A stretch of DNA of 64,000 nt from an uncultured Bacteroidales bacterium (GCA_964477095.1 CAYZDA010000002.1:42259-106258); one strand, 5' to 3'; numbered from the stretch's first letter, positions 3,640 through 28,623 are shown. Notes: generated by a model from the letters alone, not told the origin. A program made the numbers and translations.

Positions 3640-3652
3640 ATTGATAATAATT

Positions 3653-4117: not shown

Positions 4118-4209
4118 TTGTAAATTAGTTTTATTGTGCGGATGATAGTTTACCCATCCGCCACAAAGTTAATACTTCAACACCATAAAACCAACGTAAA
4201 TAAAGCCGG

Positions 4210-5175: not shown

Positions 5176-5456
5176 TATTGTATTTTCCTGTTTCAGCACT
5201 GCAAAAGTAATGGTTTTTACGCAGCGGAGAGCAAAATTGCATACTAATTCCCGTCCTTGTCTATATAAGCTAAATAAGCGGTTTACCAGCATAATTTTTT
5301 TTGAAGCAAAACAACACTGTTATAACATGAAAAAGCTATGCAGTTTATTTATTCATGTATCATTAATGCAGAAATTTATTGCATAAGAAATATTTCTTCA
5401 TATATTTGCTGTGATAAAGGATTCTTATTTGCTGAACATCAAATAATGTTAGACAT

Positions 5457-5852: not shown

Positions 5853-5874
5853 AATCACCTAAAATATTTTTCAG

Positions 5875-5901
5875 GCTGGCAGTATTGTCTGTCAGCTTTT
5901 T
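5875..5901 (+). terminator. putative intrinsic terminator after the DUF3276 gene
   Basis: GCTGGCAG-tattgt-CTGTCAGC stem (one G.T pair) followed by TTTTT. Confidence 0.5.
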
Positions 5902-5978
5902 GCGTTTAAACTTACAGCTAAATATTCCACTACCGGAATATTTCCGTAAATTTGTGCAGACAACAAAACTGTTATAAA

Positions 5979-6659
5979 ATGAAAGTTACAAGCTACGGAC
6001 ACTCCTGTTTTTCAGTGGAAGTAAAGGGAAAAAAGCTACTTTTTGACCCCTACATCAGCGAAAACCCACTGGCGGAAGAAATCGACATAAACAAACTGGA
6101 AGCCGATTATATCCTGGTTTCCCATGGTCATGAAGACCACCTGCTGGATGCAGAGGCAATTGCCAAAAGAACCAATGCCACACTGGTGGCCAACTACGAA
6201 ATTGTAAACTGGTATAAAACCAAAGGGCTTGAGAAGCTCTACCCCATGAATATAGGAGGCTCCACTATCTTAGAATTCGGGCGCGTGAATTATGTACAGG
6301 CAGCCCATTCCAGCAGCCTGCCCGATGGAAGTTATGGCGGTGTGGCCGGTGGTTTTATCATCGAAAGTGAGGAAGGTAGTTTTTACTTTGCCGGTGACAC
6401 AGGCCTGACAACAGATATGAAGCTAATCACCGAGTTTAAGGATCTGGCTTTTGCCTTTCTTCCCATAGGCGGTAAGTTCACCATGAACAGGGAGGCAGCA
6501 ATCATGGCCTCTGACTTCATTAAATGTAAAACCATTATTGGTATGCATTACGATACGTTTGAGGGCACAAAAATCGACAAGGAAGAGGCTATTGAGCAGT
6601 TTTCTTCCGTACAGAAAGAGCTGATATTATTAGACATAGGTAAAACCATAAATCTGTAG
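5979..6659 (+). CDS. MBL-fold metal-dependent hydrolase (UPF0173-like)
   Basis: [11 protein letters not shown]...[12 protein letters not shown] motif (HxHxDH). The likely start is the internal ATG at 5979 of ORF 5952..6659. Confidence 0.8.
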
Positions 6660-12526: not shown

Positions 12527-13558
12527 ATGAAATCTAAACTAATAATCCTAAGTGTTTTGCTGGCGCTTGCCGGACAATCAATACAGGCTCAAAAGCTCTC
12601 CACGCTTCGCATGGTAACCGGTGCCGATGGTGGGTACTATGAGGCTATGGGGCGTGATCTTAAGGAAATATTCGAGCCTGTGAAACGAGTGAACGTGAGT
12701 GAGGACTGGGAGTATAATTATGATGATTCGGGAGAAGTTGTTGATAGCACACTGGAGAAAGACAGCACGGCAGCCTCCGCTCAGATATTTGAAATGTTCG
12801 TTTCGCGCGGCTCCTATGATAATTACCAGCGGCTAATAGCCAATGATTTCGACATGGGATTTGTACAGTACGACATCCTGCGTAATGAATTTATTAAAGA
12901 AATAGATGCCCGCTACAAGCGAACCGAGCAGATAAAGTTGCTTCTACCCATGGGCTATGAACAGATACACTTAATTGTGAGAAAGGATTCCGATATTGAC
13001 ACCATCGGAGACCTGAAGAATAAAAAAGTGGCCGTAGGTAATTCCCTGCAGGGCACTCATTACACTGCAGGGATTTTACAGGATGCCCTTGGCATTGAAT
13101 GGATTCCCCGGCCCATTGACCTGGAGCACTCCATCAAATCATTTGTAAATAACCGCCTGGATGCTATAATTTTTGTGGGTGCTGCTCCTGTTGATATTTT
13201 CGCTATGTTTCAAAGGTATCATATCGCAGATCAGGTTAAAATGCTTTCCATACCGGAAAATGAAAAGCTCAGCAAATTTTATGGTGAACGTACGGTTATT
13301 CCGGCGTCGGCCTATGAATGGCTCGACAGGGATATCCACACCTATAGTGTAAGCACAGTGCTGGTAACCTCAGGAGATTTCAGTATCAGCGAAACTGAAA
13401 TGCTCAACCTCTTCATGAAAACATTGAGTACCAATCTGAAAACACTAAAAAACGAGGACAAATATCACCCGGGCTGGAAGGAAGTAAGCTTTAAGGAAGA
13501 CCCTCAAATCCTGTGGGACTACCACGAGGTGGCAAAAAAATACATCAAAAAAGAATAG
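12527..13558 (+). CDS. TAXI-family (TRAP-type) periplasmic solute-binding protein-like
   Basis: Signal peptide. TGADGGYYEAMGRDL and later ...VAVGNSLQGTHYTA... resemble TAXI/NMT1-like binding proteins. No adjacent permease. Confidence 0.5.
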   Translation: MKSKLIILSVLLALAGQSIQAQKLSTLRMVTGADGGYYEAMGRDLKEIFEPVKRVNVSEDWEYNYDDSGEVVDSTLEKDSTAASAQIFEMFVSRGSYDNYQRLIANDFDMGFVQYDILRNEFIKEIDARYKRTEQIKLLLPMGYEQIHLIVRKDSDIDTIGDLKNKKVAVGNSLQGTHYTAGILQDALGIEWIPRPIDLEHSIKSFVNNRLDAIIFVGAAPVDIFAMFQRYHIADQVKMLSIPENEKLSKFYGERTVIPASAYEWLDRDIHTYSVSTVLVTSGDFSISETEMLNLFMKTLSTNLKTLKNEDKYHPGWKEVSFKEDPQILWDYHEVAKKYIKKE

Positions 13559-13758: not shown

Positions 13759-13832
13759 GGTCTGGTAGTTCAGTTGGTTAGAATGCCGGCCTGTCACGCC
13801 GGAGGTCGCGAGTTCGAGTCTCGTCCAGACCG
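13759..13832 (+). tRNA. tRNA-Asp (anticodon GUC)
   Basis: Hand-folded cloverleaf: acceptor GGTCTGG/CCAGACC, D arm GTTC..GAAT, anticodon stem CCGGC/GCCGG with loop CTGTCAC, T arm GCGAG-TTCGAGT-CTCGT, discriminator G. CCA is not encoded. Confidence 0.92.
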
Positions 13833-13842
13833 CAGATATAAA

Positions 13843-13870
13843 AGCCCGCAGGAATCCTGCGGGCTTTTTT
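13843..13870 (+). terminator. intrinsic terminator after tRNA-Asp
   Basis: AGCCCGCAGG / CCTGCGGGCT perfect stem followed by TTTTTT. Confidence 0.7.
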
Positions 13871-14730
13871 CATTTATTGGTTCTTGAATGCATGTCTGCT
13901 TGATTATCCTAAAAACAGTTATTGGATATTAACAGGAAATGGGAAAGTAGCCTGTCGCGCATAAAAATGATCCCGTAATTACACACTGATCTTCCAGTAT
14001 TGATCTCGATCAGCTTTGCTAAGCTCACAAAAAACCAGATCTTATAATAAAATTTCACTCCAATTAAAATTAGCAGTAAATCCTGACACAATATTATTAC
14101 TTTTATCAGTTATCTAATTCAATATCTACCATTTTACTATTTTGAAAAATTGCAATTATTCAGGATGACGGCATATGTCTCAATATGATATTCATTCCAG
14201 GGTAAAGCATTATTTCCCAAAATAATACAAGGATCCCATTTTTAGCAATCTCATGTTTTGCTCATACCTTACTCATACCTCACTCGTACCATTCTCAAGT
14301 AAAATTCTTGTCTGCCGGCAGCGGATTTGGAGAAAGCACGAACAAGGTATGAGGAAAACATGAAGATATCTTTTCCCAAAAACACAAAGAACAAAGATCA
14401 AAGAAGAAACCGAAAGCATCATATCTATTGGTTCTGTATTTTTCACGCCTATCGTTCAGGTGCCTGTATCCTCTCATGACCAGCCAAGCTGACTGTGACC
14501 CAGAGATACAAAAAATGAAATTATTATTCCAGCAAAAAAGAATAAAAAAAATTGCCCGATAAAAACCAATCGTTATTTTTGTTAAGGATATTTCAAGTCG
14601 CCATTGTCACTCAGCAGATCGCTCCACTGTAATTGAGGGAGCGGAGCTTTGTCAGTAACTAAAAGACTGTAATTTGATTACAACACGTACAATCATAGTA
14701 TGCAAACAAAATATGCTTAAATAAACAGAT

Positions 14731-15816
14731 ATGAAAAAGTCAGAAAGCGTCCAGAAAAAAATTGAAACTGTATTTAGGCAACAGGTAAAGAATGATGAAA
14801 AAGTAAAAAATGCTTACCTGCTTGTTCAATCTGCCAAACTGGGAATTGACATAAACATAGCCGAAGGCCAGACAGGTGAAATGCAGGCAAACCCTAAGCA
14901 GGCCAACCATTTGGCCTCAGTTGGCAAATTGTTTACAGCCACTGCTGTAAGTATGCTGCATGATCAAGGTTTGCTGGCGTTTAATGACAAAATAAAAGAC
15001 TATCTGGATGCTGACCTGATGCGCAATTTACATGTTTATAAGGGTAAAGATTATTCCGGTGATATCAGCATCAAGCATTTATTAAAACAAACATCCGGCT
15101 TGAATGATGTATTTTTTCCCTTATTGAAAAAAATGACGAATGACCCTGCACTTGAAATGACGGTGAGAGAGGCTCTGGAATGGGGAAAAGCGAATCAAAA
15201 ACCTGTTGCCAGGCCTGGCCAAAAGCATGTTTATAATGACACAAATTATTACCTGCTGGGGTTGATCATAGAAACCATCACTAAAAAACCTTTTCACGAA
15301 GCAGTTCATGAAATGATCCTTGAGCCGTTAGGTATGGATAATTCCTATATAAACGGTTATTCGGAACCAAAGAACAAACCCCGGTTTCCACCGGCGCACA
15401 TCTATCTATCCAACATCAATTTTATAGAGGATAAAAGAATAGCAAAGATTGACTACGCAGGAGGTGGTGTGGTGGCTCCTCTGAGCGAATTCCTCATATT
15501 TATGAAAGCATTGGCAAATGGTAAACTGGTAAAGGAATCCACCTTAAATCAAATGATTAATGACGATGTAAAAATGGGATTCCCGGTTTTAGGTTTTGAC
15601 TATGGTTATTCAATATGGAAGCCCAGAGCCATACCGGTATTGATGCCCGAAAAGTTTTTTTGCTGGGGCTGCGTGGGTGTTACCGGAGCTTTTTTGTTTT
15701 ACCACCCGCGAACTGAAGCTTATGTTGCAGGTACATTTAATGACCAATCCTACACCTCTAAAGCATTGAGATTTATGCTCATGAAAGTGATTAAACCATT
15801 ACTGGATGTTAACTAA
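14731..15816 (+). CDS. serine hydrolase of the beta-lactamase/PBP fold (class C-like)
   Basis: 361 aa. SxxK motif in LASVGKLFTATAV, followed by ...HLLKQTSGL... and YNDTNYYLLG, typical of the AmpC-related esterase/transpeptidase family. Confidence 0.75.
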   Translation: MKKSESVQKKIETVFRQQVKNDEKVKNAYLLVQSAKLGIDINIAEGQTGEMQANPKQANHLASVGKLFTATAVSMLHDQGLLAFNDKIKDYLDADLMRNLHVYKGKDYSGDISIKHLLKQTSGLNDVFFPLLKKMTNDPALEMTVREALEWGKANQKPVARPGQKHVYNDTNYYLLGLIIETITKKPFHEAVHEMILEPLGMDNSYINGYSEPKNKPRFPPAHIYLSNINFIEDKRIAKIDYAGGGVVAPLSEFLIFMKALANGKLVKESTLNQMINDDVKMGFPVLGFDYGYSIWKPRAIPVLMPEKFFCWGCVGVTGAFLFYHPRTEAYVAGTFNDQSYTSKALRFMLMKVIKPLLDVN

Positions 15817-15918
15817 ATCCATGAGTAACAAAACAGCATTAAAAGGACATTTATAGAAAAAACTGTAAATAAACTCAGATTTATTTTACATTAATATTTA
15901 TCTAAAACATTATATTTT

Positions 15919-16527
15919 ATGAAAAAACAAGCACTTACAGCAGTATTTCTTTTATCATTGATCATTTCAATGAGTTCCTGCAGCAAGGATGACGACTGCG
16001 TGGAATCGACATGGTATGAAGACAGCGACAACGATGGATTTGGTAATCCTGAAGTGACAAAATTATCCTGTGATCAGCCTGCAAATTTTGTGGCAAACTC
16101 CAGTGATGTTGATGATACTGATCCCAATCTAAATCCGAATACGGTATGGCAGGGACCAAAAATCACATTCACAAAAGAGAATTATGCCGACTGGACCCAG
16201 GAAGCGAATCAGGACAGAATAACTGATAATGTCTGGATTACACGGAAGGACAAAAAAGGTATATTCAATATCGTTACTGAAACTTCATATTCTGATTTTG
16301 TGTCCCCTGCTGATACGGAGTGGGCAATTGGCACCACAGCTGAAATATCAGATTTAACTTTTCTGAGCTGGGAAGATGCCAGCGGAAGTGAACCTCCGGC
16401 TTTAGTTAATCAGGATATGGTTGTTCATTTGATCAAAGACAATCTTTACCTGGATATCAAATTCACTTCCTGGCAATCCGGTGGGCAGGGAGGCGGGTTT
16501 TCCTATGAGCGCTCAACAAAAAATTGA
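15919..16527 (+). CDS. lipoprotein with an acidic DxDxDGxG-type putative metal-binding motif
   Basis: Lipobox (ISMSSC). EDSDNDGFGNP motif and C-terminal GGQGGGFSYER. Confidence 0.55.
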   Translation: MKKQALTAVFLLSLIISMSSCSKDDDCVESTWYEDSDNDGFGNPEVTKLSCDQPANFVANSSDVDDTDPNLNPNTVWQGPKITFTKENYADWTQEANQDRITDNVWITRKDKKGIFNIVTETSYSDFVSPADTEWAIGTTAEISDLTFLSWEDASGSEPPALVNQDMVVHLIKDNLYLDIKFTSWQSGGQGGGFSYERSTKN

Positions 16528-16611
16528 TGCTAATATTTGAGGTAATTACCTCCTGAAAAAGCAGCAGTATAATTTGGATTTGCTCTATTTTTGTACCAAA
16601 ACATACAAAAA

Positions 16612-17076
16612 ATGAAAGAGTACATTATTTTCAGCGGGTTATTTTTTATCATACACCTGGCCTGTTATATTGTGGCGGGGGTGATTGACCTTCAATTAGC
16701 AAAAAAGATATATGCCGGCAAAAACCGCCTGTTTAAATCCTTTTTCCGGGATATGGATATTGAAACAGAGAGGCTCCGCATTGGCAGATTACTTCTTCCT
16801 TCACAGTTCGCCAGAGCTATATTAATGTCATTGGTGCTTTATCCCATACTGCCATTTATTAAAGAACTAACATTTGGAGTACAGTTTATTTTTATGGGAT
16901 CACTGATGTTTGTATATGCCGATTTTGCCAGTGCCATTCCATTTTCCAATACGATTGAAGGTATTGTTTATCTGAAAAAGCAATACGTTGAAAGAAAAGT
17001 TTTCTGGACTATCCAGTTTGAAGCAATAATGTACAGCCTGTTATTTGGATTATTATCCGCCTGGCTTCTTATTTAG
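16612..17076 (+). CDS. hypothetical multi-pass membrane protein
   Basis: About 4 predicted hydrophobic helices. The likely ATG is at 16612 within ORF 16591..17076. TATTTTTG (-7-like box) lies just upstream. Confidence 0.45.
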   Translation: MKEYIIFSGLFFIIHLACYIVAGVIDLQLAKKIYAGKNRLFKSFFRDMDIETERLRIGRLLLPSQFARAILMSLVLYPILPFIKELTFGVQFIFMGSLMFVYADFASAIPFSNTIEGIVYLKKQYVERKVFWTIQFEAIMYSLLFGLLSAWLLI

Positions 17077-17110
17077 CTGTGGAGTTCTAAAGCATTGAAA
17101 ATATAGCACC

Positions 17111-17887
17111 ATGGTAAATTTTTCAGAAAGATATAAAACTCTCACGGATATTGAATTAGTAAGGGTGGTTAAAAATCAGGCTGACTACCAGGCTGAGGCC
17201 GTTGAAGCAGCGAAACGTGAAATCATTCGCCGCAATCTCACTGAACAGGAGTTGGAAAAAGCGTCAGATGAACTGGAAGCCCGGCAACAGGAAAAACAAA
17301 TGCAGTATGAGCAAAGGTCTGAATATGGTGAAAAGCTAAAAAGCTTTGGTAATTCGGTCCTGGAAGTCATCATTCCATTCCGGAAATCAGCACCTACAGC
17401 AGAAAGATTGAAGCATCTGATTACAATAGTATTTGGATTAATAGCTGCCATACAAATCTTCAGCCAGTCAGGAATGATCTCATACATCTTAACTGACGAT
17501 ATACGCTACTGGGATATCAGTACTGCCGGCTACCTTTTGTCGTTGCTATTGCTTCCCACCGCTGTAATACTGTTCGCCTTAAGAAAAAAATCCGGCTGGA
17601 TATTACTTACAGCATATCTTACCTGGTCATGTATAAGCTCATTTGGTTTGATGGTCATGTTATGGTATATACAGCCATCCGGTGTAACTGCACCTGACGG
17701 GCTGCTGCCTGCCACCTCTCTCCTAACCCAAATTATCATCATACTGATTTACGGCGGTACAGTTTGGCTATTGAACAAAAAAATACTCACAGAATATTTT
17801 AATATAAGCCGGAAAACTGCTGTAATCACCATCGTGGTCACAGGAATTCCAGCCATTCTTTTTATAGCATCTTTCCTGATCACCTGA
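17111..17887 (+). CDS. hypothetical membrane protein (soluble helical N-domain plus about 5 TM helices)
   Basis: 258-aa ORF. Charged N-terminal third, hydrophobic remainder. No family recognised. Confidence 0.45.
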   Translation: MVNFSERYKTLTDIELVRVVKNQADYQAEAVEAAKREIIRRNLTEQELEKASDELEARQQEKQMQYEQRSEYGEKLKSFGNSVLEVIIPFRKSAPTAERLKHLITIVFGLIAAIQIFSQSGMISYILTDDIRYWDISTAGYLLSLLLLPTAVILFALRKKSGWILLTAYLTWSCISSFGLMVMLWYIQPSGVTAPDGLLPATSLLTQIIIILIYGGTVWLLNKKILTEYFNISRKTAVITIVVTGIPAILFIASFLIT

Positions 17888-18393
17888 AAACTATAACATA
17901 CAACCTCAGAACATGATAAAAAGGAAAAAAAGATCAAAATGGCAGCAGTTTCTAAATGGTTTATATAAAATCATTCAGTTATACTTCTTCCCTGTTTTAG
18001 GTACTCCCAATAACAGCAGGAACCGAAACACCATTTTCGACAAACACAAAAAATTCAGGCAACGGTATTAGGCAATACCGTTTAAAACATGATATCCGGA
18101 AATAACAATTTGCCCCTTAATTGAATTGATTACCTTAACAACAAAAACTGTTGGATGGTAATAAAGAGAACTAACCGGGGATGGTTTTAAAAAACTCCGC
18201 CAGCTTCCCTCCTTCGAGAAGAGGCGTCTTGAAAATAGCACGATTAAAGAAAAAGTGCAAGACAAAATAATAATTATGAATCTGAGGGTAATGAATAATA
18301 TTGTACGTTTGTATTTGCAAGGATAAGATGGACACAAACCCTGCAAATACGCATGAATATATCAGTATAAGAACGGTTTTACCTTTCTTATAA

Positions 18394-19155
18394 ATGAGTT
18401 GTGGCCAATTAAAAAAAATGAGACCTTCTTCAAATCAACTATTGATCGTTAGCTTTCTTATAAGCATAATTACCCTCACGGTTCTTGTTTATCATCGTGA
18501 ACTTAAATTGAACGACATTCATCATGACATCCTATTTTCATTCTTTCTTATTTCTTTGATTATTAGTAGTTATGGACTGTTCGCCGGAATTAAAAAAAGA
18601 AGGACAAACAGAAGGCAATGGGTAGGCATAGTGGGTAATTTGCTTTTAATAATTCCTCTTGCGATTCTTTCGTTTAAATACTTGAGATACCTCACCCAAA
18701 AACCGGATTTCGAGATTTTTAAACTTGAGAAGTTTAATTATAACAAGGCAAGTATTAATGATGGCGATAAGATAAAAATCCTATCAATCTCTGATGGTAA
18801 AGATTGTACAAAAGATGAAACCTACTACTATTCTGTTATTGGAGTAGTACAGAGAAATAAAGACACCGTGAGAATCCTGACTCCTTGCCAGGTTCTTTCA
18901 CAAAACTTTACAGATGCGACATTTAATTCTCCTGACCAATCTAAGGACAGTATTATGAATGTCGTTGGATACGAGATAAAGGGTGAAAAATATGTCATTA
19001 TTAATCAGGACTTACCTTACCAAAAAATTGACTTTAATGTAGCTATTGGAAGTCTCTCATTTAAAGACGACAAAAATGAAATTTTAAAAGAGGAATTAAA
19101 ATATAAAAACATTGACACAAATTTACTGGAAGCACCTAAGCATGAGATCAAGTAG
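18394..19155 (+). CDS. hypothetical membrane-anchored protein
   Basis: 253 aa. Three N-terminal TM helices, then a soluble Lys/Asp-rich domain. Very AT-rich codon usage. Confidence 0.45.
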   Translation: MSCGQLKKMRPSSNQLLIVSFLISIITLTVLVYHRELKLNDIHHDILFSFFLISLIISSYGLFAGIKKRRTNRRQWVGIVGNLLLIIPLAILSFKYLRYLTQKPDFEIFKLEKFNYNKASINDGDKIKILSISDGKDCTKDETYYYSVIGVVQRNKDTVRILTPCQVLSQNFTDATFNSPDQSKDSIMNVVGYEIKGEKYVIINQDLPYQKIDFNVAIGSLSFKDDKNEILKEELKYKNIDTNLLEAPKHEIK

Positions 19156-19315
19156 AAAACTGGCCACAATTTTATTCGGGTTTAGATCGATTTTTGGGCT
19201 TATTTCGGCTCTTTACATCATTTCTGCAGCTGTTTTTGCAAAATCGTTGGATGAGCCAATTTTTTCTGTTACCTTTACACAACAAACCGAAAAAGTACAA
19301 AACAGTAACGTATAG
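19112..19315 (+). CDS. small hypothetical membrane protein whose last 18 codons (including the stop) lie in repeat copy 1
   Basis: 67-aa ORF with one TM helix (FGLISALYIISAAVFA). The C-terminus FSVTFTQQTEKVQNSNV* is encoded by the 82-bp repeat. Confidence 0.3.
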   Translation: MTQIYWKHLSMRSSRKLATILFGFRSIFGLISALYIISAAVFAKSLDEPIFSVTFTQQTEKVQNSNV

Positions 19316-19343
19316 CAGTGGTTTTTAGACGGACTGACGTTAC
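19262..19343. repeat. 82-bp repeat, copy 1
   Basis: TTTTCTGTTACCTTTACAC...AGTAACGTATAGCAGTGGTTTTTAGACGGACTGACGTTAC. It is 70/82 identical (ungapped, counted by hand) to copy 2. It contains an imperfect hairpin, GTAACGT...ACGTTAC with an inner CAGT/ACTG. Confidence 0.8.
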
Positions 19344-19384
19344 CCCTATGCGGAAAAATTCCACCGTCAAAGCAACTAATTTTT

Positions 19385-19416
19385 TTTGCATAAAAGTAAA
19401 TTTATATTTACCTTTG
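19385..19416 (+). promoter_or_regulatory. Bacteroidota-type promoter of hicAB
   Basis: TTTG (19385-19388), a 20-nt spacer, then TACCTTTG (19409-19416, TAnnTTTG). It lies 32 nt upstream of the hicA ATG. Confidence 0.45.
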
Positions 19417-19447
19417 TGTTAGTTCAAATAGATAAACTGACATTTTA

Positions 19448-19642
19448 ATGAAATGTTCAGAATTGTATAGACTTTTGACTAAAGATGGATGGTATGCAGT
19501 ATCTCAAAAAGGGTCACATGTGAAAATGAGACATGATTTAAAACCTGGATTGATAATTTTTCCAGATCATGGATCACAGGAAGTTGGTAAGGGATTGGAG
19601 AAAAAGATACTTAAAGACGCAGGAATTAACAAAAAAAGTTAG
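19448..19642 (+). CDS. hicA: HicA-family mRNA-interferase toxin
   Basis: 64 aa. ...LLTKDGWYAVSQKGSHVKMRH...IIFPDHGSQEVGKGLEKKILKDAGI fits the YcfA/HicA pattern (GSH..., P.H, K.aG). Confidence 0.85.
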   Translation: MKCSELYRLLTKDGWYAVSQKGSHVKMRHDLKPGLIIFPDHGSQEVGKGLEKKILKDAGINKKS

Positions 19643-20046
19643 TGACTATGAAAAAACTAAAAGAGAAAATAAAATTAATCGTCGAAAAGACAGATACTGG
19701 ATTCTCCTGTTATTCTGAAGATTATCCAATATTTACGACAGGAAAAACAATTCCGGATTTGATGGCGAATTCATTTGAATCTGCGACTCTGTATTTCGAA
19801 GACGAGGGGATTGAAGTTAAACATTCTGACCTTCAATTTGAGGTAGATTTTCAGCAATTCTTTCAATATTACAAGGTGATAAACTCAAAATACCTGGCAA
19901 AAAAGATTGGCATGAATCCAACCTTGTTGAGTCAGTACGTGCAAGGACATAAAAAACCTTCGGAAAACCAGACTGAAAAGATTTTATATGGAATTCATCA
20001 AATTGGTCAGGAATTATCAGAAATGAATTTGATTTTCAGAAAATAA
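19642..20046 (+). CDS. hicB: HicB-like antitoxin with a C-terminal HTH
   Basis: Abuts the hicA stop (GTG at 19642, or ATG at 19648). The N-terminus (EKTDTGFSCYSEDYPIFTTGKTIPD) is HicB-fold-like. The C-terminus (LAKKIGMNPTLLSQYVQGHKKPSENQ) is an XRE-type HTH. Confidence 0.75.
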   Translation: MTMKKLKEKIKLIVEKTDTGFSCYSEDYPIFTTGKTIPDLMANSFESATLYFEDEGIEVKHSDLQFEVDFQQFFQYYKVINSKYLAKKIGMNPTLLSQYVQGHKKPSENQTEKILYGIHQIGQELSEMNLIFRK

Positions 20047-20181
20047 AGCACAGGCGGCAACAGCGATTCATAAAGCAAAGGCAATGAGAACGTTTTTATA
20101 CGTTCTGGATTATATATTAACACCGCCAAGTAAGGCCTTCGCTTCATAACAGCGTACGTAGCCACACATTAAAAGGAAAAC

Positions 20182-20688
20182 ATGAGACTGATAATTACCT
20201 TTTCATTCGTTCTTTTCACATTGACCACTTTTGGTCAGACGAGGGTTCTTGACAAAGGAAGTGGAGATTACCGAAAATTGGGAAAGGCGGTAACTGTTCT
20301 TGAATTAATAGAGCAAGGAAAAGCTCAAGCCGTGTACTCTCACCTGCCAAACAGCATAACTGTTGACACTATGGAATTTGAAAAAATCATTCACCAGGTT
20401 ACAGAAATTTATCATCATGAAGAAGGCTCAACACCGTCAGCTTTTATCAATGACAAATCTTCTTCTCTTTGGTACGAAAGAACTTATTTCACGCGAACAG
20501 AGACTGGAATTGAATATCAAATCCAAATATATCTAGAACTGATAGAAAATAATGGATCAGTAATGATCTCTAAAATTGAGTTTAGAGAGAAAGATGAGAT
20601 TAAACCAGGGACAAAAGAAATTGAACAACTGGGCAGAGTGGATGAAAATAATCCTCCACCCCCTCCAGCTCCACCAGGAATGAGATAG
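20182..20688 (+). CDS. secreted hypothetical protein with a Pro-rich C-terminus
   Basis: Signal peptide (FSFVLFTLTTFGQ). C-terminal NNPPPPPAPPG. No family recognised. Confidence 0.45.
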   Translation: MRLIITFSFVLFTLTTFGQTRVLDKGSGDYRKLGKAVTVLELIEQGKAQAVYSHLPNSITVDTMEFEKIIHQVTEIYHHEEGSTPSAFINDKSSSLWYERTYFTRTETGIEYQIQIYLELIENNGSVMISKIEFREKDEIKPGTKEIEQLGRVDENNPPPPPAPPGMR

Positions 20689-20945
20689 AAAAAACGTGTG
20701 CCCAATATCCAGGAATATGAGCGGCAGGCTCCCTTTTAGTTATCGGGAGCTCAGCGAGTATTAGATAGCCATCGGAATCCGGCAAGCCGATATTACGACC
20801 CTTCCCTATGTTATATTTTCCAACGTTTTTGGATATATTATGAGGATTTATTTTGAGCGAAAGAGCAGAAATTCAAATAGAAATCCGGGTATTTCGTTTC
20901 CGGCCTCTTTTCTTTTCTTCTGCCAAAACCATAGGATCAAACATG

Positions 20946-21027
20946 ATTTTCTATTACCTTTACAAAGCAAACTGAAAAAATACAAAATAGTAACTTTTAG
21001 CGGGGTTTTTTAGACGGACTGACGTTA
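20946..21027. repeat. 82-bp repeat, copy 2
   Basis: TTTTCTATTACCTTTACAAAG...AGTAACTTTTAGCGGGGTTTTTTAGACGGACTGACGTTAT. The peptide frame of copy 1 is retained (FSITFTKQTEKIQNSNF*), but a TGA sits immediately upstream at 20943. Confidence 0.8.
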
Positions 21028-21106
21028 TAGCCAATTGAAAAATTTCGATCAGAAAAAAGCAATAAAAAACTACTTTAAATGTTCCATTATTAGTTAACTT
21101 TGTTAA

Positions 21107-21463
21107 ATGGACAGAAATCGACAACTTATTTATTTCAAGAACTATTTTTGGAGATTCTTCAACAAGCAACCTGAAAATGTAAAAGATAAAATTGATTACG
21201 TTCTTTACCTTGTGACTTATGCGGAACGGATACCAAAAAAGTTCTTTGATAATTTAAAAGGATATGACGGCTGATTTGAAATCAGGATTGAATTTGAGAG
21301 CAATATTTATAGAATCTTTTGCTGTTTCGACCAGGGAAATATAGTTGTCCTTTTCAACGGGTTTCAAAAAAAGACCCAAAAGACTCCAAAAAAGGAAATT
21401 GAAAAAGCAATGCGGATCAAGAACGAATACTTTGAATTAAAAATCAAAGGAGAAAATAAATGA
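21107..21463 (+). pseudogene. HigB/Gp49-like (DUF891-type) toxin interrupted by an in-frame TGA
   Basis: Hand translation from the ATG at 21107 gives 55 codons (MDRNRQLIYFKNYFWRFFNKQPENVKDKIDYVL...KGYDG). A TGA follows at 21272, then the same frame continues FEIRIEFESNIYRIFCCFDQGNIVVLFNGFQKKTQKTPKKEIEKA... to a TGA at 21461. That stop overlaps the antitoxin ATG (ATGA). Confidence 0.7.
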
Positions 21464-21750
21464 AAAACATAACAACATTTGATGAGCATCTTGACCAAAG
21501 ATACGGCAAGAAAGGAACTGAAAAAAGGACTGAATTTGAAATTAAGGCTAAAGCTTTTGCAATTGGGGAAATCCTTAGAGATGCAAGGAAGCAAGCAAAC
21601 ATGACACAGGAAGAACTTGCAAAAAAAACAGGAACAAGAAAAAGTTTTATATCCCGAATTGAAAATGGTCATAGCGACATTCAATTATCAACCCTTTACA
21701 GACTTGTTGAAATTGGATTTGGAAAAAGTTTAAACCTGACTATCAGATAA
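21460..21750 (+). CDS. XRE-family HTH antitoxin (HigA-like)
   Basis: 96 aa. IGEILRDARKQANMTQEELAKKTGTRKSFISRIENGHSDIQLSTLYRL is a canonical Cro/C1 HTH. The start is coupled to the upstream toxin frame. Confidence 0.8.
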   Translation: MKNITTFDEHLDQRYGKKGTEKRTEFEIKAKAFAIGEILRDARKQANMTQEELAKKTGTRKSFISRIENGHSDIQLSTLYRLVEIGFGKSLNLTIR

Positions 21751-22498
21751 GAATCAACTGGATATAACAGCAGCTCAATTATAACTTTCAAGCACAAGAA
21801 AGATTTGAAGGACAATCTCTACTAATGGAATGCCTGGAAGAAATTCCTTTTAGCTATTCGACCAAAGACAAAGGACCTTTCATGGAAGCTGTGAATCACC
21901 TGGATAGCATTGAACTCGTATTAGTAACTACAAAAAGATGAAAAGACCCGACCTACGCATTTTACTACTTCCAGAAATTCGTGGCGGTTCATGGAGAAAG
22001 CGCTTATTTGGTTTCACCAGAAGTATTTCACAATGAAACCAGTAAGCATTCCTCGCTATTTCTCAATTACAAAAAGAAGACACACTTCTTCTATCGAGCT
22101 GATTGTTTCAGACAAAATTTGAAAGAACATGAAGAACTAAGTTAGATTCTAAAAAAGGAATAAAAACGGCTACCAATAAATTAAGATTTAAGCAGCGCGC
22201 ATTACCTGCAAGTAGTTCCCGATCTGCCCTCGTTTTACGGGCTTGACTTAAATCCAATCCCCTGGCTATATTTTGCGATTTATTGTAGTTTTTGGGAAGC
22301 ATCCGTACCTTTTTGCTTTCAAAACATTATCCTGTTATTTTAAAAAAACATTCCTTTGTAAATAACTCTCCATAAGTAGAAACGAATGCGATAATTTTGA
22401 GAGACTCCTTAGTATAATGAAGGTAATGTATTATATCAGAACATTTACTTGTTTTAATATGAAACATTTTGTATTTTTGTATGGAAAACGATATAAAA

Positions 22499-23296
22499 AT
22501 GGATACGATAAATCAAAAAGAGTTGGGAAATAGAATATCTGAACTTCGGAAGATAAAGGGATATTCTCAATATGAGCTTGCTAAATTGGTGGAAATTTCA
22601 AGACCATCTTTAACTCAGATTGAATTAGGTAATAGAAATGTATCCGTAATCGAACTTAAAAAGATTGCAGATCATCTCTCCATTTCAATTGATAAATTAT
22701 TATCACATGATTTTGAAACTGAGGATATAATTTTTGCTTCCTCTGATTCTCCAGATAGCCAGGAATTAAGAATATCAACACCCAAATTAAATGTCGATAA
22801 GTTTAAAGAAATATTGCTATACATTCTTGAGAAATGTGCAGGCAAACCAAACATAGGAGAAACACTATTATACAAACTATTATATTTTTCTGATTTTAAT
22901 TATTATGAGATATTCGAAGAGCATTTAACAGGTGCAGAGTACAGGAAACTTCCTTTTGGTCCTGTACCCCAGGGGATTGATTCTATTATAAAACAGATGA
23001 TTACAAATAAAATGATAAAAAGGCTTAAAACAGAATATCACGGTTATCCACAAACAAGATATATTCCTTTAATAAAACCAAATTTGAAGCGCCTGAAGGC
23101 AAGTGAAAAAGATATTATTGACAAAGTGATTGAGCAGTTTTCAGACTGGTCTGCATCAGCAATTAGTGATTATTCTCATAAAGATATGCCCTGGTTAGCA
23201 TCAAAAGATGGAGATGTTATTGACTATGAGCTGGCATTTTACAGAGAGCATCCATATTCAGCCAGAACTTACAATGACGATATTTCTGAGCGATGA
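22499..23296 (+). CDS. fused XRE-HTH / DUF4065 (Panacea, SocA-like) antitoxin
   Basis: N-terminal HTH (LGNRISELRKIKGYSQYELAKLVEISRPSLTQIELGNRN). C-terminal ...ETLLYKLLYFSDFNYYEIFEEHLTGAEYRKLPFGPVP... matches the DUF4065 core. The ORF opens at 22469, but a TATTTTTG box at 22472-22479 favours the ATG at 22499. Confidence 0.8.
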   Translation: MDTINQKELGNRISELRKIKGYSQYELAKLVEISRPSLTQIELGNRNVSVIELKKIADHLSISIDKLLSHDFETEDIIFASSDSPDSQELRISTPKLNVDKFKEILLYILEKCAGKPNIGETLLYKLLYFSDFNYYEIFEEHLTGAEYRKLPFGPVPQGIDSIIKQMITNKMIKRLKTEYHGYPQTRYIPLIKPNLKRLKASEKDIIDKVIEQFSDWSASAISDYSHKDMPWLASKDGDVIDYELAFYREHPYSARTYNDDISER

Positions 23297-23637
23297 ACAT
23301 TGAGGAATTAGATGAATATAAGAAGGATTTAAAGAAACTTTCCAGGAAATACAGGACAATAGCTGAAGATATAGAAGTTGTTAAGAAGGTTCTGTTTGTA
23401 AATCCCAATGAAAGACCTCCTTTTAGTTTTAGGATTGATAACCTGGGAATAGAAACGTGTGTAATTAAAGTAAAAAAAATTGCAAGTAAGTCTTTTAAAG
23501 GAAAAGGTGTGAATTCTGGATTTCGATTGGTCTATGCTCACTTTGAAAATGTGAATAAAATTGTTTTAGTTGAGTTATATCACAAATCTAAAAAGGAGAT
23601 TGAAGATAAGGATAGAATTATTAATAATTTTAAGTAA
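23293..23637 (+). CDS. RelE/ParE-superfamily toxin-like protein
   Basis: 114 aa with a 4-nt overlap (ATGA) on the upstream antitoxin. ...KGKGVNSGFRLVYAHFENVNKIVLVELYHKSKKEIEDKD resembles the GyR(l/v)iY...iyhKs tail of RelE/HigB-type toxins. Confidence 0.65.
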   Translation: MNIEELDEYKKDLKKLSRKYRTIAEDIEVVKKVLFVNPNERPPFSFRIDNLGIETCVIKVKKIASKSFKGKGVNSGFRLVYAHFENVNKIVLVELYHKSKKEIEDKDRIINNFK

Positions 23638-23649
23638 AGGAGTATTTAT

Positions 23650-23693
23650 CAAGTGCATATAGTAACGTTTAGCGGTGATTTTTAGATGGACTG
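23650..23693. repeat. 82-bp repeat family, truncated copy 3 (core only)
   Basis: ATAGTAACGTTTAGCGGTGATTTTTAGATGGACTG (23659-23693) matches the copy-2 core at 31/35 and copy 1 at 30/35. The left 40 nt and the terminal ACGTTA are missing or diverged. Confidence 0.65.
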
Positions 23694-24005
23694 TCCCGAA
23701 AATTTGGAGAGACTGCATTGTGCGTTAATTGAGCGAAAAAGAAAAAAACACTTGACATATACGGACTAAAAATGAATATTTGTACGTATTAATAACCCAA
23801 AAGCTTATTTTTGAAAAGAAAACATCATATAGGCCAATTATTTGAGGTTAAATAAATTCAATGGTAACTGGAAAAATGATCTGCATATTCATTCTGTTTA
23901 TCAAATAAGACTAACAAAGTGAGAACAAATTGCAGCTGTAATATTTTCGGTGACTAAAACTTATACGTAAATAATACAGTTTTGAAGATATTAACCAGTC
24001 TGCTT

Positions 24006-24476
24006 ATGAAAACAACAATTTTTGCATTCATTCTTCTACTTCATTCTCTCGTGTTTTATGGCCAAAACAGGGTTTATAACATTAAAGACACTACCAATGA
24101 AGGCCTTACCATGAGCGACCTTGACAGCATATATAAAAATGGTCTATCGGCGAATGATTCTACAAATCCTGTGTTCTCTCATGAGGCTTTTGATTCGATA
24201 GTAAAGCCGGAAAGACAGAAACTTCTGCGAAACCTCCGCGCTCATTTTGACGATAATGGGTTTAACTGGCAACCTGCATTAATGATCTGGACGCGTATGT
24301 ACGTGGATGAAAATGGCAGGATCGACTATCTTCTTTACCATTTTATAACTCCCATTAACAGCATAAAAGAAGCAGAATTTCGAAAAACAGTCAACAAATT
24401 TCTAATGGAAAACAAGTTAAACATTTCAGCTCCGGTAAAATTTTCCATCTGTGGCAGAGTGGTATTTAAAGAATGA
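24006..24476 (+). CDS. secreted hypothetical protein
   Basis: Signal peptide (MKTTIFAFILLLHSLVFYGQ) from the ATG at 24006 within ORF 23982..24476. No family recognised. Confidence 0.45.
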   Translation: MKTTIFAFILLLHSLVFYGQNRVYNIKDTTNEGLTMSDLDSIYKNGLSANDSTNPVFSHEAFDSIVKPERQKLLRNLRAHFDDNGFNWQPALMIWTRMYVDENGRIDYLLYHFITPINSIKEAEFRKTVNKFLMENKLNISAPVKFSICGRVVFKE

Positions 24477-24631
24477 TGAACTGGCCCATAGAACGGAAAA
24501 ATGACAAAATTCCAATAATTCTTAAATTTGTAAGATTCGTTTATATACTCGACAATGAAGGGAAAAAAATTGCGCTGTGGGAGCCAAATGATCCTGAATA
24601 TGAAAAATTGGTTGAAGGCAGAACGAAATAA
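24473..24631 (+). CDS. possible 52-aa ORF translationally coupled to the upstream gene (below the ORF-track cutoff)
   Basis: Hand translation: MMNWPIERKNDKIPIILKFVRFVYILDNEGKKIALWEPNDPEYEKLVEGRTK*. Its ATG overlaps the upstream TGA (ATGA). Confidence 0.3.
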   Translation: MMNWPIERKNDKIPIILKFVRFVYILDNEGKKIALWEPNDPEYEKLVEGRTK

Positions 24632-24699
24632 ATTAACAGCACCCAATAAATAGGGTCTGCTGAAAAACACATGTGAAATAAAATAATAATTTACCCCAG

Positions 24700-25143
24700 T
24701 TGAGAAAGTTTATCATTCCTCCGGTTTTTGTGGCACTATCAGTCCTGCTGATGGTGGGCTTTTACTTTGCACTTCCAGCCTTTCAGATATTGCCTTTCCC
24801 TTTAAATCTGTCAGGCATTCCCATAAGTATTGCAGGTTTTATAATTATGGGGAAATCCAGGGATTTATTCAAAAAACATCAAACCACTCTTGATATAAAA
24901 CCTTCAACTTACCTGATTCGGGAAGGCATTTTCGCCAAATCAAGAAACCCCATGTATCTGGGCATGTTCCTGTTGCTGCTGGGACTGGGCTTTTGTTTTG
25001 GTAATCTGTTTTCTCTGATCACACCTCTGTTGTTTATTTTACTCATGCATTTTATATTTGTGCTGAAGGAAGAAAAAATGATGGAGCAGGAATTCCGGCA
25101 GGAATACCAGGAATATAAGGTAAAAGTAAAAAGATGGATTTGA
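24700..25143 (+). CDS. isoprenylcysteine carboxyl methyltransferase (ICMT)-family membrane methyltransferase
   Basis: 147 aa, 4 TM helices. SRNPMYLGMFLLLLG and C-terminal EEKMMEQEFRQEYQEYKVKVKRWI are the family hallmark. TTG start. Confidence 0.7.
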   Translation: MRKFIIPPVFVALSVLLMVGFYFALPAFQILPFPLNLSGIPISIAGFIIMGKSRDLFKKHQTTLDIKPSTYLIREGIFAKSRNPMYLGMFLLLLGLGFCFGNLFSLITPLLFILLMHFIFVLKEEKMMEQEFRQEYQEYKVKVKRWI

Positions 25144-25390
25144 ATGATTATTAAGGACAGTGTGGACGGCCTGAGCAGGGAGATAGAAAATGGCAGGCTC
25201 CTGAAAAGACCAGGTTTTGTTGTCCGGCGGATGATTCACCTTTGTTTTCAATAGTTCACATGAATATTGAAGCGGTAGATCACAGTGTAAGCTGCAAAAA
25301 AATGCCGCAACAGATATTCCGGTGTCTTTGACGGTAAGCATTGATTCTGACAGACTACAATCAAAAGCAATAAATAAAAAGCTTAATATT

Positions 25391-25876
25391 ATGGAGACCG
25401 TGGAAAAACTTGAAAGGCGCAGCACGCACGTTCATCAGGTAGGTATTGAGGCACCTGCTGCAAAAGTATGGGATTTCCTGCTTAATATTGAACATAATTA
25501 TACGCGGTGGCATCCCTCGGATCATGTACTTTTTAAATGGACCGGAGGTGAACCAATGGCGAAAGGTTCAACCTTTTATGCCGAACAAATGATGATGAAC
25601 AATAAGGTGAAATACAAAGGAATGATAACCGAAAGCCTACCGGGCAGAAAAATTAGCATGAAATTTTCATTTCCACTTTCACTGATCACAGAAAAAATAG
25701 AAATGATCATTGAGGATCATGGCAAATACTCTACCTTCAAGCATATCACCCATCTAAAATTTCTTTTCTTATCACGCACGATTTTCAGAAAAAGAAACTT
25801 GCGAATGCTTAGCGATATGGACCTTCATGTAAAAACCGAAGCAGAAAACATGAAACAGTTGCTGGATGAGCATTAA
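25391..25876 (+). CDS. SRPBCC (START/polyketide-cyclase-like) family protein
   Basis: IEAPAAKVWDFLLNIEHNYTRWHP... is the typical SRPBCC N-terminus. ATG at 25391 within ORF 25322..25876. Confidence 0.55.
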   Translation: METVEKLERRSTHVHQVGIEAPAAKVWDFLLNIEHNYTRWHPSDHVLFKWTGGEPMAKGSTFYAEQMMMNNKVKYKGMITESLPGRKISMKFSFPLSLITEKIEMIIEDHGKYSTFKHITHLKFLFLSRTIFRKRNLRMLSDMDLHVKTEAENMKQLLDEH

Positions 25877-26302
25877 GCATTAGTAGTATCATGATGATTA
25901 TTTTTTTCAGACCGGCTTAAGATTAGTGGTGTTAATTATACCATAACAGTCTGTTTTACCGCTTAATAAACATCCCGTTCATTATTTGTCTTATTTAGTA
26001 AATCTGTCAGCTAAAGGAAATATGACTGATCCAGGAGACAAACAAATAATGGAATACTTCCAAAAGCTGGAGAATGCTAAATCAAATGATTTTTTTGATG
26101 AAATAAATTGAGGCAAATAAACCAGAGATTATTACAAATAATTATAATATATGGAAGTAGCAATTCAAAACCTACCTCACTAACTCAATCAGATGGATAT
26201 AAATCTTTTATTAAGAAGATTGAAAGCTACAATTATAATAATAACTGTAGCAAATTGGCCACTTATCCTATAGCAACAAAAAGGTTCCCGAAAGAATTAA
26301 AC

Positions 26303-27634
26303 CTACAACAATCCCCTGTTTTTAATTTCCAGGTATTTATTGATGCTGTTCACTGTCAGGTCTTCCGGGCGTGTTACCAGGTGGTGGATTCCATAACGCC
26401 CCAGTTCCTTTAGTGCCTGATTCTTTTCAAACATAAAACTTTCCGCTATGGTACGTGTGTAAATCTGTTCGAGATTTTTAGCTTCCTGCTTCGTGATATC
26501 CGTTAGGGTGGTGTTTTCAAATGCCACTACCAGCACCAAATGCCTTGAGGCAAGATGCTTCAGGTAACCGGCCTGCCGCTCGATACCATAGCGGCTCATG
26601 TAGTTGGTGAAAATTATCAGCAGGCTGCGGGTGCTTATCCGGTTACGGATCATATTCAGCACACCTTCCAGGCTGGACTCCCTGAAATCCGTTTTTTGAT
26701 TATACAGGCTTTCCATTAAAAGCTTAAACTGGTTATGTCTTGATTCGGCAGGCAAAAACTGGTGCAGCTTATTGGTATAGCTGAGCATACCAAAGCGGTC
26801 TTTGTTTTTCAGTGCCACCCTTCCCAGTGCCAGGCTGGCATTAATAGCGTAATCCAGATAGGTCATACCTTTAAAGGCCATTTCCATGCTGCGGCCCATA
26901 TCAATCAGGCTATAGATATTCTGTGCTCTCTCTTGCTGATAATAATTGGCCATCAGGGCATTCTTCCTGGCCGTAGCTTTCCAGTTAATATGACGCGGCT
27001 CATCGCCAGGCACATAGTTTTTGATATGCTCAAATTCTACATTATGTCCCGCCTGCCTGATCCTTTTATTACCATATGGGCTCTTAAGCGAAGCAAAAGA
27101 ATAAAAATCAATGTTTTTAATCTGCTGAAAAGATGGATAGACCTTGACGGTGCTGTGCTGCTTAAATTCAAATCTGCGTTCCACCAAACCCCACAGGGCG
27201 CGGGCAAAAACATTTATATTGCCGAAAGTGAATTCACCCCGCTTCACCGGAATCAGGTGGTATTTCTCCTCCATTAAAGATCCGGCCCCTATTTTTTTCA
27301 CCAGTGAAAAATCCCTGATCTGAAAAACAACAGGAATCTCATCGATCACCGTAACATCAACAGCAAAGGAATAATTATTTATAATACTGATAGATACCGG
27401 GTTTTCATCACCGTTGGAGAACATTTCAGCCAGTTCCCGCTTTGCTGAAACTCCGTGTTTATTGCCATATAACATAATAATTTCCAGCATAATTATTATA
27501 GCAAAAGTCATCAGTATTATATTGGCCGGGACTATCAGCCACACTATCCAGGTTCCCGCCACGTATAAGGCACTAATGGCCAAAAGAGCAATAAAAAAGC
27601 GTTTATTTAAAAACAACGACCTGATAAACTTCAT
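26303..27634 (-). CDS. DUF58 (vWA-like) protein, MoxR partner
   Basis: 443 aa. Two N-terminal TM helices. ...FEHIKNYVPGDEPRHINWKATAR... is the DUF58 signature. 1-nt overlap with moxR. Confidence 0.8.
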   Translation of the reverse strand: MKFIRSLFLNKRFFIALLAISALYVAGTWIVWLIVPANIILMTFAIIIMLEIIMLYGNKHGVSAKRELAEMFSNGDENPVSISIINNYSFAVDVTVIDEIPVVFQIRDFSLVKKIGAGSLMEEKYHLIPVKRGEFTFGNINVFARALWGLVERRFEFKQHSTVKVYPSFQQIKNIDFYSFASLKSPYGNKRIRQAGHNVEFEHIKNYVPGDEPRHINWKATARKNALMANYYQQERAQNIYSLIDMGRSMEMAFKGMTYLDYAINASLALGRVALKNKDRFGMLSYTNKLHQFLPAESRHNQFKLLMESLYNQKTDFRESSLEGVLNMIRNRISTRSLLIIFTNYMSRYGIERQAGYLKHLASRHLVLVVAFENTTLTDITKQEAKNLEQIYTRTIAESFMFEKNQALKELGRYGIHHLVTRPEDLTVNSINKYLEIKNRGLL

Positions 27635-28623
27635 TACCGCGGGATTTTGATGTCGGCTATAATTTGTTCGATTATTTCCCTGGGGGTAATGCCTTCCATT
27701 TCCCTGTCGGGACTGAGAATAATACGGTGCAGCATCACGTAGGGAGCTACAAGCTGCACATCATCCGGGATGACAAAATCTCTGCCGTTGAGGGCGGCAT
27801 TTGCCCGGGCTGCAGAGAGTATTCCCAGCGAAGCCCTGGGTGAAGCACCCAGGAACAGGTCAGGATTATTGCGTGTAGCATGCACTATTTCCACGATATA
27901 ATTCCTGATCTCTTTTTCCACGCGGATGTCCTGCAGAATCCTCCGGCTTTCCGCCAGCTCCTCACGAGTTACTACCGCCTCAATATGCTCTTCCGTGAGC
28001 CTGGATTCATCCTCCTGGAAGTGCTCAAGAATCAGGTTTTCTTCTTGCTTATCAGGATAATCCACGATGATCTTAAACAAAAAACGGTCGAGCTGGGCTT
28101 CCGGAAGGCGGTAAGTTCCTTCCAGGTCCACCGGATTTTGGGTAGCGATGACCAGGAAAGGCGGATCGAGCTTATAGGTTTTGCCGTCAGCAGTTATCTG
28201 GCGCTCCTCCATTACTTCAAACAGCGCAGCCTGTGTTTTGGCAGGCGCACGGTTCACTTCGTCCACCAGCACGATGTTGGAAAACAAAGGTCCTTTATAA
28301 AACTCAAAGGTTGCTTTCTGTGCATTATAAACTGATGTGCCGGTGAGATCCGATGGCAAGAGATCAGGAGTGAACTGCACCCGCTTAAAATCAGCTTTGA
28401 TAGTACGGGCCATCAGCCGCGCTGTTAGAGTCTTGGCGATACCGGGCACCCCTTCCAGCAGCACATGCCCATCTGACATTAAGGCAATCAGCAGCAATTC
28501 AATCATCTGATCCTGTCCAACGATTACTTTCTTTATTTCCTGACGAAGCGCGCCGGCCTTTTGGCTGAATGGCTCCAGGTCTATCCTGTTTTCAAAGATT
28601 CCCTCTGTATTTTCTTCACTCAT
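27634..28623 (-). CDS. MoxR-family AAA+ ATPase
   Basis: Walker A LLEGVPGIAKT and Walker B LVDEVNRAPAKTQ. ...VIATQNPVDLEGTYRLPEAQLDRF is diagnostic of MoxR/RavA-type ATPases. Confidence 0.9.
   Translation of the reverse strand: MSEENTEGIFENRIDLEPFSQKAGALRQEIKKVIVGQDQMIELLLIALMSDGHVLLEGVPGIAKTLTARLMARTIKADFKRVQFTPDLLPSDLTGTSVYNAQKATFEFYKGPLFSNIVLVDEVNRAPAKTQAALFEVMEERQITADGKTYKLDPPFLVIATQNPVDLEGTYRLPEAQLDRFLFKIIVDYPDKQEENLILEHFQEDESRLTEEHIEAVVTREELAESRRILQDIRVEKEIRNYIVEIVHATRNNPDLFLGASPRASLGILSAARANAALNGRDFVIPDDVQLVAPYVMLHRIILSPDREMEGITPREIIEQIIADIKIPR

Follow-up and report, generated by a model that had tools for sequence, protein, structure and literature searches.

How does a run of 16 supported genes, all read in one direction and bounded on one side by a tRNA-Asp gene, come to stand in a genome region with no recombinase beside it? 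The question is raised by an accessory block of 12.4 kb (13,834-26,302) that extends from the terminator of tRNA-Asp to the stop codon of a convergent DUF58 gene, within a 64,000-nucleotide stretch of DNA from an uncultured Bacteroidales bacterium (GCA_964477095.1 CAYZDA010000002.1:42259-106258; the whole stretch is hereafter the window). On balance, we consider it probable that the block is a horizontally derived, lineage-specific accessory region whose core, at about 18.4-23.7 kb, is what remains of an integron-type cassette array, now fixed and decayed. We favour this fossil-array origin because the block bears scars of an insertion sequence (IS) that elsewhere lies in the R' sites of attC sites, upstream of cassettes, and because it carries ordered toxin-antitoxin (TA) modules homologous to cassette genes.

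The block is compositionally foreign. Its GC content is 35.7%, versus 43.5% in the left and 43.8% in the right flank; calculated per gene, GC is 0.358 in the block and 0.443 in the flanks, and GC at third codon positions (GC3) is 0.343 and 0.472, respectively (Mann-Whitney p=5e-8 each). An earlier note, made from this DNA alone, had called the block AT-rich and proposed an analysis of GC and codon usage; GC and GC3 prove to be clearly shifted relative to the flanks. Intergenic GC is as low as genic GC, coding density is 65% versus 86-91% in the flanks, and GC forms a mosaic along the block, at 0.37-0.42 (14.7-17.9 kb), 0.29-0.38 (18.4-23.6 kb) and 0.37-0.39 (24-25.9 kb). All 16 supported open reading frames (ORFs; 14731-25876) are on the plus strand, in agreement with the approximately 16 plus-strand genes counted earlier; most of their products lack a family match and three TA loci are among them, an arrangement of small co-oriented ORFs that is shared with integrons and with attC-site clusters that have no integron-integrase (CALINs).

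The block also appears to be lineage-specific, i.e., absent from the two nearest relatives with which synteny was compared, these having been traced by exact-protein look-ups and DUF58 homologues. In the closest, a genus-level relative (85% amino acid identity for DUF58, 72% for the NMT1_3 protein encoded beside the tRNA), the tRNA/DUF58 junction is split over two short contigs. To the left, the relative's contig (L003) matches the window through tRNA-Asp and its terminator to ~13870-13881, at or near the end of that contig; to the right, similarity ends at 26298, and an aldehyde dehydrogenase gene without counterpart in the window is convergent on the relative's DUF58 gene. In the 63% relative the RDD...MoxR-DUF58 block is retained and genes for a histidine kinase and a sigma-54 response regulator come after it, and on contigs L008, L009 and L010 synteny stops at the DUF58 stop codon. 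The synteny comparison that the earlier note had called for thus places the limits of conservation at 26298-26303 on the right and, on the left, past tRNA-Asp at ~13870-13881.

The block is not free of repeats: three co-oriented intergenic copies had been overlooked. A direct repeat of 123 nt joins 19239-19361 to 20924-21046 (76% identity), with a third, shorter copy from 23661, and the motif AGTAACNTNTAGCNGNGNTTTTTAGANGGACT (32 nt plus) occurs three times in the window, always in the block, on the plus strand and between genes, with 0 copies expected by chance. The first copy (c1) terminates in the right inverted repeat of an IS1182-family element, GGTTTTTAGACGGACTG, at 19320-19336, followed by ACGTT. 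The second (c2) is composite: its 5' module (~20701-20775) carries an R''-like box (CCAAT) and a hairpin (GTGCCCAAT ATCCAGGAATATGAGCGG...CAGCGAGTATT), while its 3' part comprises ~125 nt up to the IS right inverted repeat (21005-21021), again followed by ACGTT. Beyond the terminal repeat, matches to c1 and c2 are confined to the inter-cassette repeats of two cassette-bearing contigs, L013 and L014. Neither a left inverted repeat nor a transposase ORF was found at the window copies, which, as right ends alone, are thus remnants and not elements of the IS1182 family.

Other identities for the repeat were considered and set aside. A structured RNA was rejected (RNAalifold -3.9 kcal/mol, no covariation, and no Rfam match in the window region or in L012-L014). 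An attI or secondary (attG-like) palindromic site, considered because a core was seen to be followed by cassettes and then by an inverted core, was abandoned once an IS1182 transposase ORF and paired ends had been found. A fourth candidate IS end at 20092 is a local hairpin only (AGAACG...CGTTCT).

The identity of the element comes from a scan of public collections with the repeat core, in which the matches listed include 4 genome contigs as well as over 120 stretches of metagenome sequence (metagenome loci being numbered L015-L134); no motif match was obtained in viral contigs. At 13 or more loci, an ORF of 515-532 aa that shares the strand of the core and stops 13-50 nt short of it encodes an IS1182-family transposase (NCBIfam NF033551, 340 bits versus a cut-off of 270). 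The element is bounded by 17-nt inverted repeats, left CAGACTGTCTAAAAACC and right GGTTTTTAGACGGACTG, with CGT flanking both ends. The two are spaced 1.68-1.76 kb apart in full copies (e.g., L047:1762-3454 and L095:249-2000) and 206-582 bp apart in derivatives resembling miniature inverted-repeat transposable elements (MITEs).

Where these elements lie can be read from the geometry that defines an integron cassette: the TTRRRY half of R', with which a cassette opens, is complementary to the R'' box of the attC belonging to that cassette (the R'/R'' rule). For 64 of 116 occurrences, the hexamer past the IS end plus GTT matches, as reverse complement, the hexamer preceding an AA that lies 0.3-4.8 kb downstream; hexamers permuted among loci gave 4.6 matches (maximum 11), and with 7 nt the count was 41 versus 1.4. 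The sites downstream are canonical attCs, with a homogeneous class of 125-131 nt whose two stems pair at 14-17 of 17 positions (20/20 cases) and show compensatory changes in 10/10 RNAalifold pairs (MAFFT misregisters attC stems). A short attC-like class of ~54-65 nt forms strong single-stranded DNA hairpins (z -4.3 to -6.9), in which R'' pairs with R' and a bulge of 2 nt is present. The left ends of the IS abut the 3' arm of an attC, as where ...GGGTAGCTGCAAAACGT runs directly into CAAACTG..., and the attC score threshold was reached exactly at the junction for 17 of 31 true IS left junctions versus 1.9% of random controls. Cassette genes share the strand of the IS and begin 25-40 nt past its right end. 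The IS family therefore targets the R' (crossover) end of attC sites and does so in a fixed orientation. We found no publication linking the IS1182 family to attC.

Two side observations concern these loci. At L025, L056, L057, L063, L065 and L117, the short class is always followed by GTTGAAC(N3-5)ATCCC(C)AACC and then by 0.3-0.8 kb of non-coding DNA; this segment may represent a cassette that lacks an ORF, an old half-site of attI or some other mobile element. One of these, the cassette-array contig L057, encodes at 1555-6346 a group II intron-type reverse transcriptase (615 aa), an IS91-like zinc-finger transposase and a Xer-like tyrosine recombinase, the last of which was rejected as IntI (160 bits versus an integron-integrase cut-off of 265).

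The second line of evidence is the TA cargo. Three pairs are predicted type II TA modules: HicA with a helix-turn-helix (HTH) partner, Gp49-type HigB with HTH_3, and HTH-Panacea with an overlapping 114-aa ORF that has no recognised domain. The window HicA and HicB share 66-70% amino acid identity with the products of a verified cassette at L020 (R' GTTATGGCC, R'' GGCCATAAC, 88-nt attC) and with those of L084, and HigB and HigA are 55% and 60% identical to their L084 homologues, so that cargo of the block is homologous to attC-flanked cassette genes of both loci. L084 runs in the order cassette, 128-nt attC with a 155-bp MITE (1404-1557) at its R' site, hicAB, attC and higBA; the succession of hicAB and higBA in the window is that of L084. 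All three TA loci named in the earlier note are thus present, although the higBA locus is probably dead. The in-frame stop in higB, set against a read-through product that matches nearly the whole Gp49 profile (PF05973, E=4.7e-23, positions 2-87 of 90), is a sign of decay; with its antitoxin intact, the interrupted toxin may be a pseudogene or may reflect a sequencing error.

We thus propose the following history. Promoter-poor cassettes would have been captured successively, and in one orientation, by an integron integrase, with attC sites at what are now the relic positions; both the capture and these former sites are what we infer. The attC sites would then have been invaded by IS copies, of which later decay left solo right ends, and attC hairpins and integrase alike would have disappeared. 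The TA modules may formerly have stabilised the array, with higB since inactivated. What remains would be an immobile, co-oriented array that is fixed in the population.

Several results weigh against this reconstruction. Pfam scans of ORFs across the window detected no integrase or transposase, and a tblastn search of all 64 kb with IntI1, including the 860-bp ORF-free gap in which intI would be expected had the integron been complete, gave no match. A geometric scanner calibrated on 20 attCs of related arrays (18 of which score >=28), a tool distinct from IntegronFinder's model, found 0 intact attC sites on the gene strand of 13834-26302, and its 3 matches at threshold on the opposite strand are within the range of shuffled sequence (mean 1.05, maximum 3). 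Neither c1 nor c2 has a reverse-complement-plus-AA partner, the R'' box of c2 has no GTT-plus-reverse-complement partner, and the attC-like hairpin of c2 (z=-0.13), like its closest counterpart in L014 (z=-0.37), is no better than shuffles. No feature specific to cassettes is seen in the outer genes (14.7-18.4 and 24.0-25.9 kb). The region is 99.9% identical at the nucleotide level in two independent samples, with contigs of both sequencing runs collinear over both junctions (13805-18260 and 23584-29141) and no present-day mobility seen. Only ~55% of IS junctions are tied to an attC; the family may also enter inverted repeats of other kinds, and the relics do not prove that attCs once stood there. 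IS1272, a member of this family, is reported to target inverted repeats (PMC5678879), and complete genomes of Bacteroidetes very rarely contain integrons (PMC9024848). The definition of a CALIN, moreover, asks for 2 or more detectable attC sites (PMC9024848). The region is therefore classed as neither an integron nor a CALIN. A degenerate attC suspected after hicB (20047-20181) was also discarded, its arms being direct and not inverted repeats and the scanner remaining silent. The earlier proposal of a horizontally acquired, possibly cassette-structured region accordingly survives in part: foreign composition, lineage specificity, three attC-linked IS relics and cassette-homologous hicAB and higBA speak for acquisition and for cassettes as a past origin, whereas the missing attC sites and R'/R'' pairing and the shuffle-like hairpin argue against any cassette structure at present.

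These same absences also speak for the main rival, namely an ordinary plasticity zone at a synteny breakpoint, in which accessory genes and TA loci accumulated piecemeal through illegitimate or homologous recombination or IS activity, and in which the relics lie in ordinary intergenic hairpins. We regard this as a real possibility, albeit not a probable one. It sits well with a window devoid of attC, R'/R'' pairing and integrase, with the mosaic GC of the block, with a relative that differs on the conserved tRNA side as well (an additional NMT1_3 paralogue and OsmC) and with the general targeting of inverted repeats by IS1182-family elements (PMC5678879). A piecemeal origin must nonetheless contend with 16 genes in one orientation, with three relics that point in the same direction and stand directly upstream of genes as in real arrays, with the R''-type 5' module of inter-cassette repeats borne by c2, and with hicAB and higBA that are homologous to verified cassettes and stand in the same order.

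Two further explanations place the origin of the block elsewhere. It may be an island targeted to tRNA-Asp by a tyrosine integrase, with int and the att repeats since deleted or mutated past recognition, which we consider unlikely: its start right past the tRNA-Asp terminator is the sole positive evidence, though the 860-bp ORF-free stretch at the expected place of int, the low GC and the absence of the block from relatives would also agree. No copy of the tRNA 3' end was found in the 64 kb (last 22 nt at <=3 mismatches; k-mers >=11 nt; relevant orientation), no similarity to a recombinase, whether in the gap or in other parts of the window, no phage, conjugation or mobilisation gene in the block, and no similarity of the region to plasmid or phage records; relatives seen so far have unrelated genes at both junctions, and the cassette-linked IS relics would go unexplained. 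In the parts of the window tested, the earlier statement that integrase, transposase and a direct repeat of the tRNA end are missing therefore stands. Nothing shows that tRNA-Asp served as integration site, there being neither integrase nor att repeat. Integrons, to our knowledge, do not target tRNAs. The tRNA-Asp is most likely an incidental neighbour, marking the edge of a conserved block and not an attachment site. That the region is instead native and vertically inherited, its low GC owed to weak selection or to membrane-protein content, is highly improbable. The fixed, collinear, 99.9% identical state in two independent samples and the several membrane or secreted products would suit such an origin, yet the GC3 shift of 0.13, the equally low intergenic GC and the absence of the DUF58-adjacent genes from the 85% relative speak against it, as do TA modules and IS relics, both hallmarks of acquired DNA.

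A variant of the array interpretation concerns the composite repeat itself. Repeats of 300-430 nt at L013:4716-5150 and 5420-5820, L014:1-205 and 1186-1487, and window 20701-21027 combine a short R''-hairpin module, tandem hairpin repeats of ~35 nt (in L013) and an IS right end. The first 29 nt are identical between L013, from a 'Bacteroidales' metagenome-assembled genome (MAG), and L014, from a 'Muiribacteriota' MAG, although the labels of the two MAGs put them in different phyla, and the R'/R'' rule is obeyed in 3/3 cassettes bounded by the repeat in these contigs. As opposed to debris, the repeat might be a long, non-canonical site at which recombination still works, or a mobile unit by which cassettes are still moved, but we think this quite unlikely. 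Were it so, Bacteroidota-type arrays would use a class of recombination site that current attC models miss, and the window array might not be dead.

Table 1. Features of the accessory block and of its borders (window coordinates).
Feature	Position	Strand	Details
tRNA-Asp(GTC)	13759-13833	+	ARAGORN; Rfam RF00005 70.4 bits; left edge of conserved flank
GC-rich tRNA terminator hairpin	13840-13870	+	AAAAGCCCGCAGGA/TCCTGCGGGCTTTT, then T run; 14-nt inverted k-mer match
ORF-free stretch, 860 bp	13871-14730		35% GC; six-frame translation without credible ORF
Beta-lactamase-family serine hydrolase	14731-15816	+	Pfam E=4e-35
Lipoprotein	15919-16527	+	ORF call
Multi-transmembrane or unknown proteins	16591-17076, 17111-17887, 18394-19155	+	ORF calls
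IS relic c1	19171-19341	+	~170 nt homologous to L013/L014 inter-cassette repeat
hicA	19448-19642	+	Pfam HicA PF07927, 8e-20
hicB-like HTH antitoxin	19642-20046	+	partner of hicA
Secreted/lipoprotein-like gene, 168 aa	20182-20688	+	no function assigned; element c2 directly 3'
Composite element c2	20701-21027	+	aligns end to end with L013/L014 inter-cassette repeats
higB (Gp49-type toxin), putative pseudogene	21107-21463	+	in-frame stop, codon 56 (21272-21274)
higA-type HTH antitoxin	21460-21750	+	HTH_3 6.5e-15; start overlaps higB end by 4 nt
HTH + Panacea (SocA-like) antitoxin	22469-23296	+	PF13274 3.7e-22
Candidate toxin, 114 aa	23293-23637	+	overlaps Panacea antitoxin; no family match
IS relic c3	23661-23693	+	degenerate 33-nt right-end stump AGTAACGTTTAGCGGTGATTTTTAGATGGACTG
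Four co-oriented genes	23982-25876	+	164-aa lipoprotein-like, 52-aa ORF, PEMT/ICMT methyltransferase and SRPBCC-like (the last two also in the next rows)
PEMT/ICMT-family membrane methyltransferase	24700-25143	+	Pfam
SRPBCC-like protein	25322-25876	+	Pfam 25.7 bits, just under cut-off 27.4
DUF58 gene	26303-27634	-	Pfam; convergent to block
MoxR gene	27634-28623	-	Pfam

For the genes of the block (Table 1), most of the earlier calls are confirmed, with Pfam supporting the serine hydrolase, HicA, the HTH and HTH-Panacea antitoxins, the PEMT/ICMT methyltransferase and, below threshold, the SRPBCC-like protein. The five leading accessory genes (14731-19155) have a GC of 0.33-0.42, and the four at the right end receive the same calls on an independent contig (L005). 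PADLOC found no defence system in the block, yielding generic HTH matches only and none for the five leading genes. Inside the 860-bp gap, 14251-14363 holds a 20-nt inverted repeat (95% complementary, 73-nt loop) without attC-type ends.

In the flanks, Pfam scans returned housekeeping genes only, i.e., YajC, NusB, ParAB, DapB, LepB and the RDD...DUF4350-MoxR-DUF58 block, whose DUF58 and MoxR genes open the conserved right flank, together with type IX secretion system PorP/SprF, PurC, PhoH, DnaN, a respiratory/hydrogenase complex and HypFDE. On the tRNA side, L003:1969-3726 (GCA_041641835.1) carries an extra NMT1_3 paralogue and OsmC between NMT1_3 and tRNA-Asp, and this conserved side has thus also been rearranged between relatives. 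Among 5.8 billion clustered proteins, the NMT1_3-family substrate-binding protein encoded beside the tRNA (12527-13558) has only 3 homologues at E<=1e-20, which indicates that this Bacteroidota lineage, in which a PorP/SprF gene is present and whose nearest named relative is a 'Bacteroidales' MAG, is poorly sampled; a scan of genome contigs with the same protein recovered no relative. Breaks of Logan contigs at tRNA-Asp were rejected as strain variation, since a k-mer assembly is expected to break at any tRNA that is repeated.

Neither degraded integrons nor accessory islets rich in TA loci are new. Our analysis suggests, in addition, that cassette arrays have shaped the genomes of uncultured Bacteroidota and may persist there as attC-less fossils, which attC-based detection such as IntegronFinder is not expected to report and for which IS scars would provide an independent marker. 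The attC-targeting IS, which is abundant, may outweigh the window in importance, as it could affect cassette excision and cassette expression in environmental integrons and the assembly of arrays from metagenomes.

Set beside known systems, the block resembles a tRNA-linked genomic island in its position directly 3' of a tRNA, its deviating composition, its accessory cargo and its absence from relatives. Such islands carry an integrase and direct repeats of the tRNA 3' end, whereas the block has no integrase, attL/attR or mobility genes, is strictly single-oriented and holds cargo linked to integron cassettes. It is closer to a CALIN or degraded sedentary integron, with which it shares co-oriented, small and mostly unrecognised genes, two-gene TA modules, the lack of an adjacent integrase, AT-richness relative to the host, cassette-homologous modules and scars of attC-associated mobile elements. 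As a CALIN has at least 2 attC sites and the window has no intact one, the block would represent a stage beyond the CALIN, in a host phylum that seldom carries integrons in complete genomes.

The IS has its nearest parallel in IS1272, which has a transposase of the same family and likewise prefers hairpin-forming inverted repeats as targets (PMC5678879). IS1272 is staphylococcal and has no reported tie to integrons, whereas the IS described here occupies the R' end of attC sites in environmental Bacteroidota-type arrays. Two kinds of element are already known to target attC, the IS1111-attC group and the group IIC-attC introns, next to which the IS1182-family element and its MITEs, located at the attC crossover end, would form a third kind. 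All enter at a fixed attC position in a specific orientation and are found in many cassette arrays. In place of the DEDD transposase of IS1111-attC elements or the reverse transcriptase of group IIC-attC introns, however, the element described here uses an IS1182-family DDE transposase, and it is further set apart from both by its 17-nt terminal inverted repeats, its CGT flanks and its MITE derivatives.

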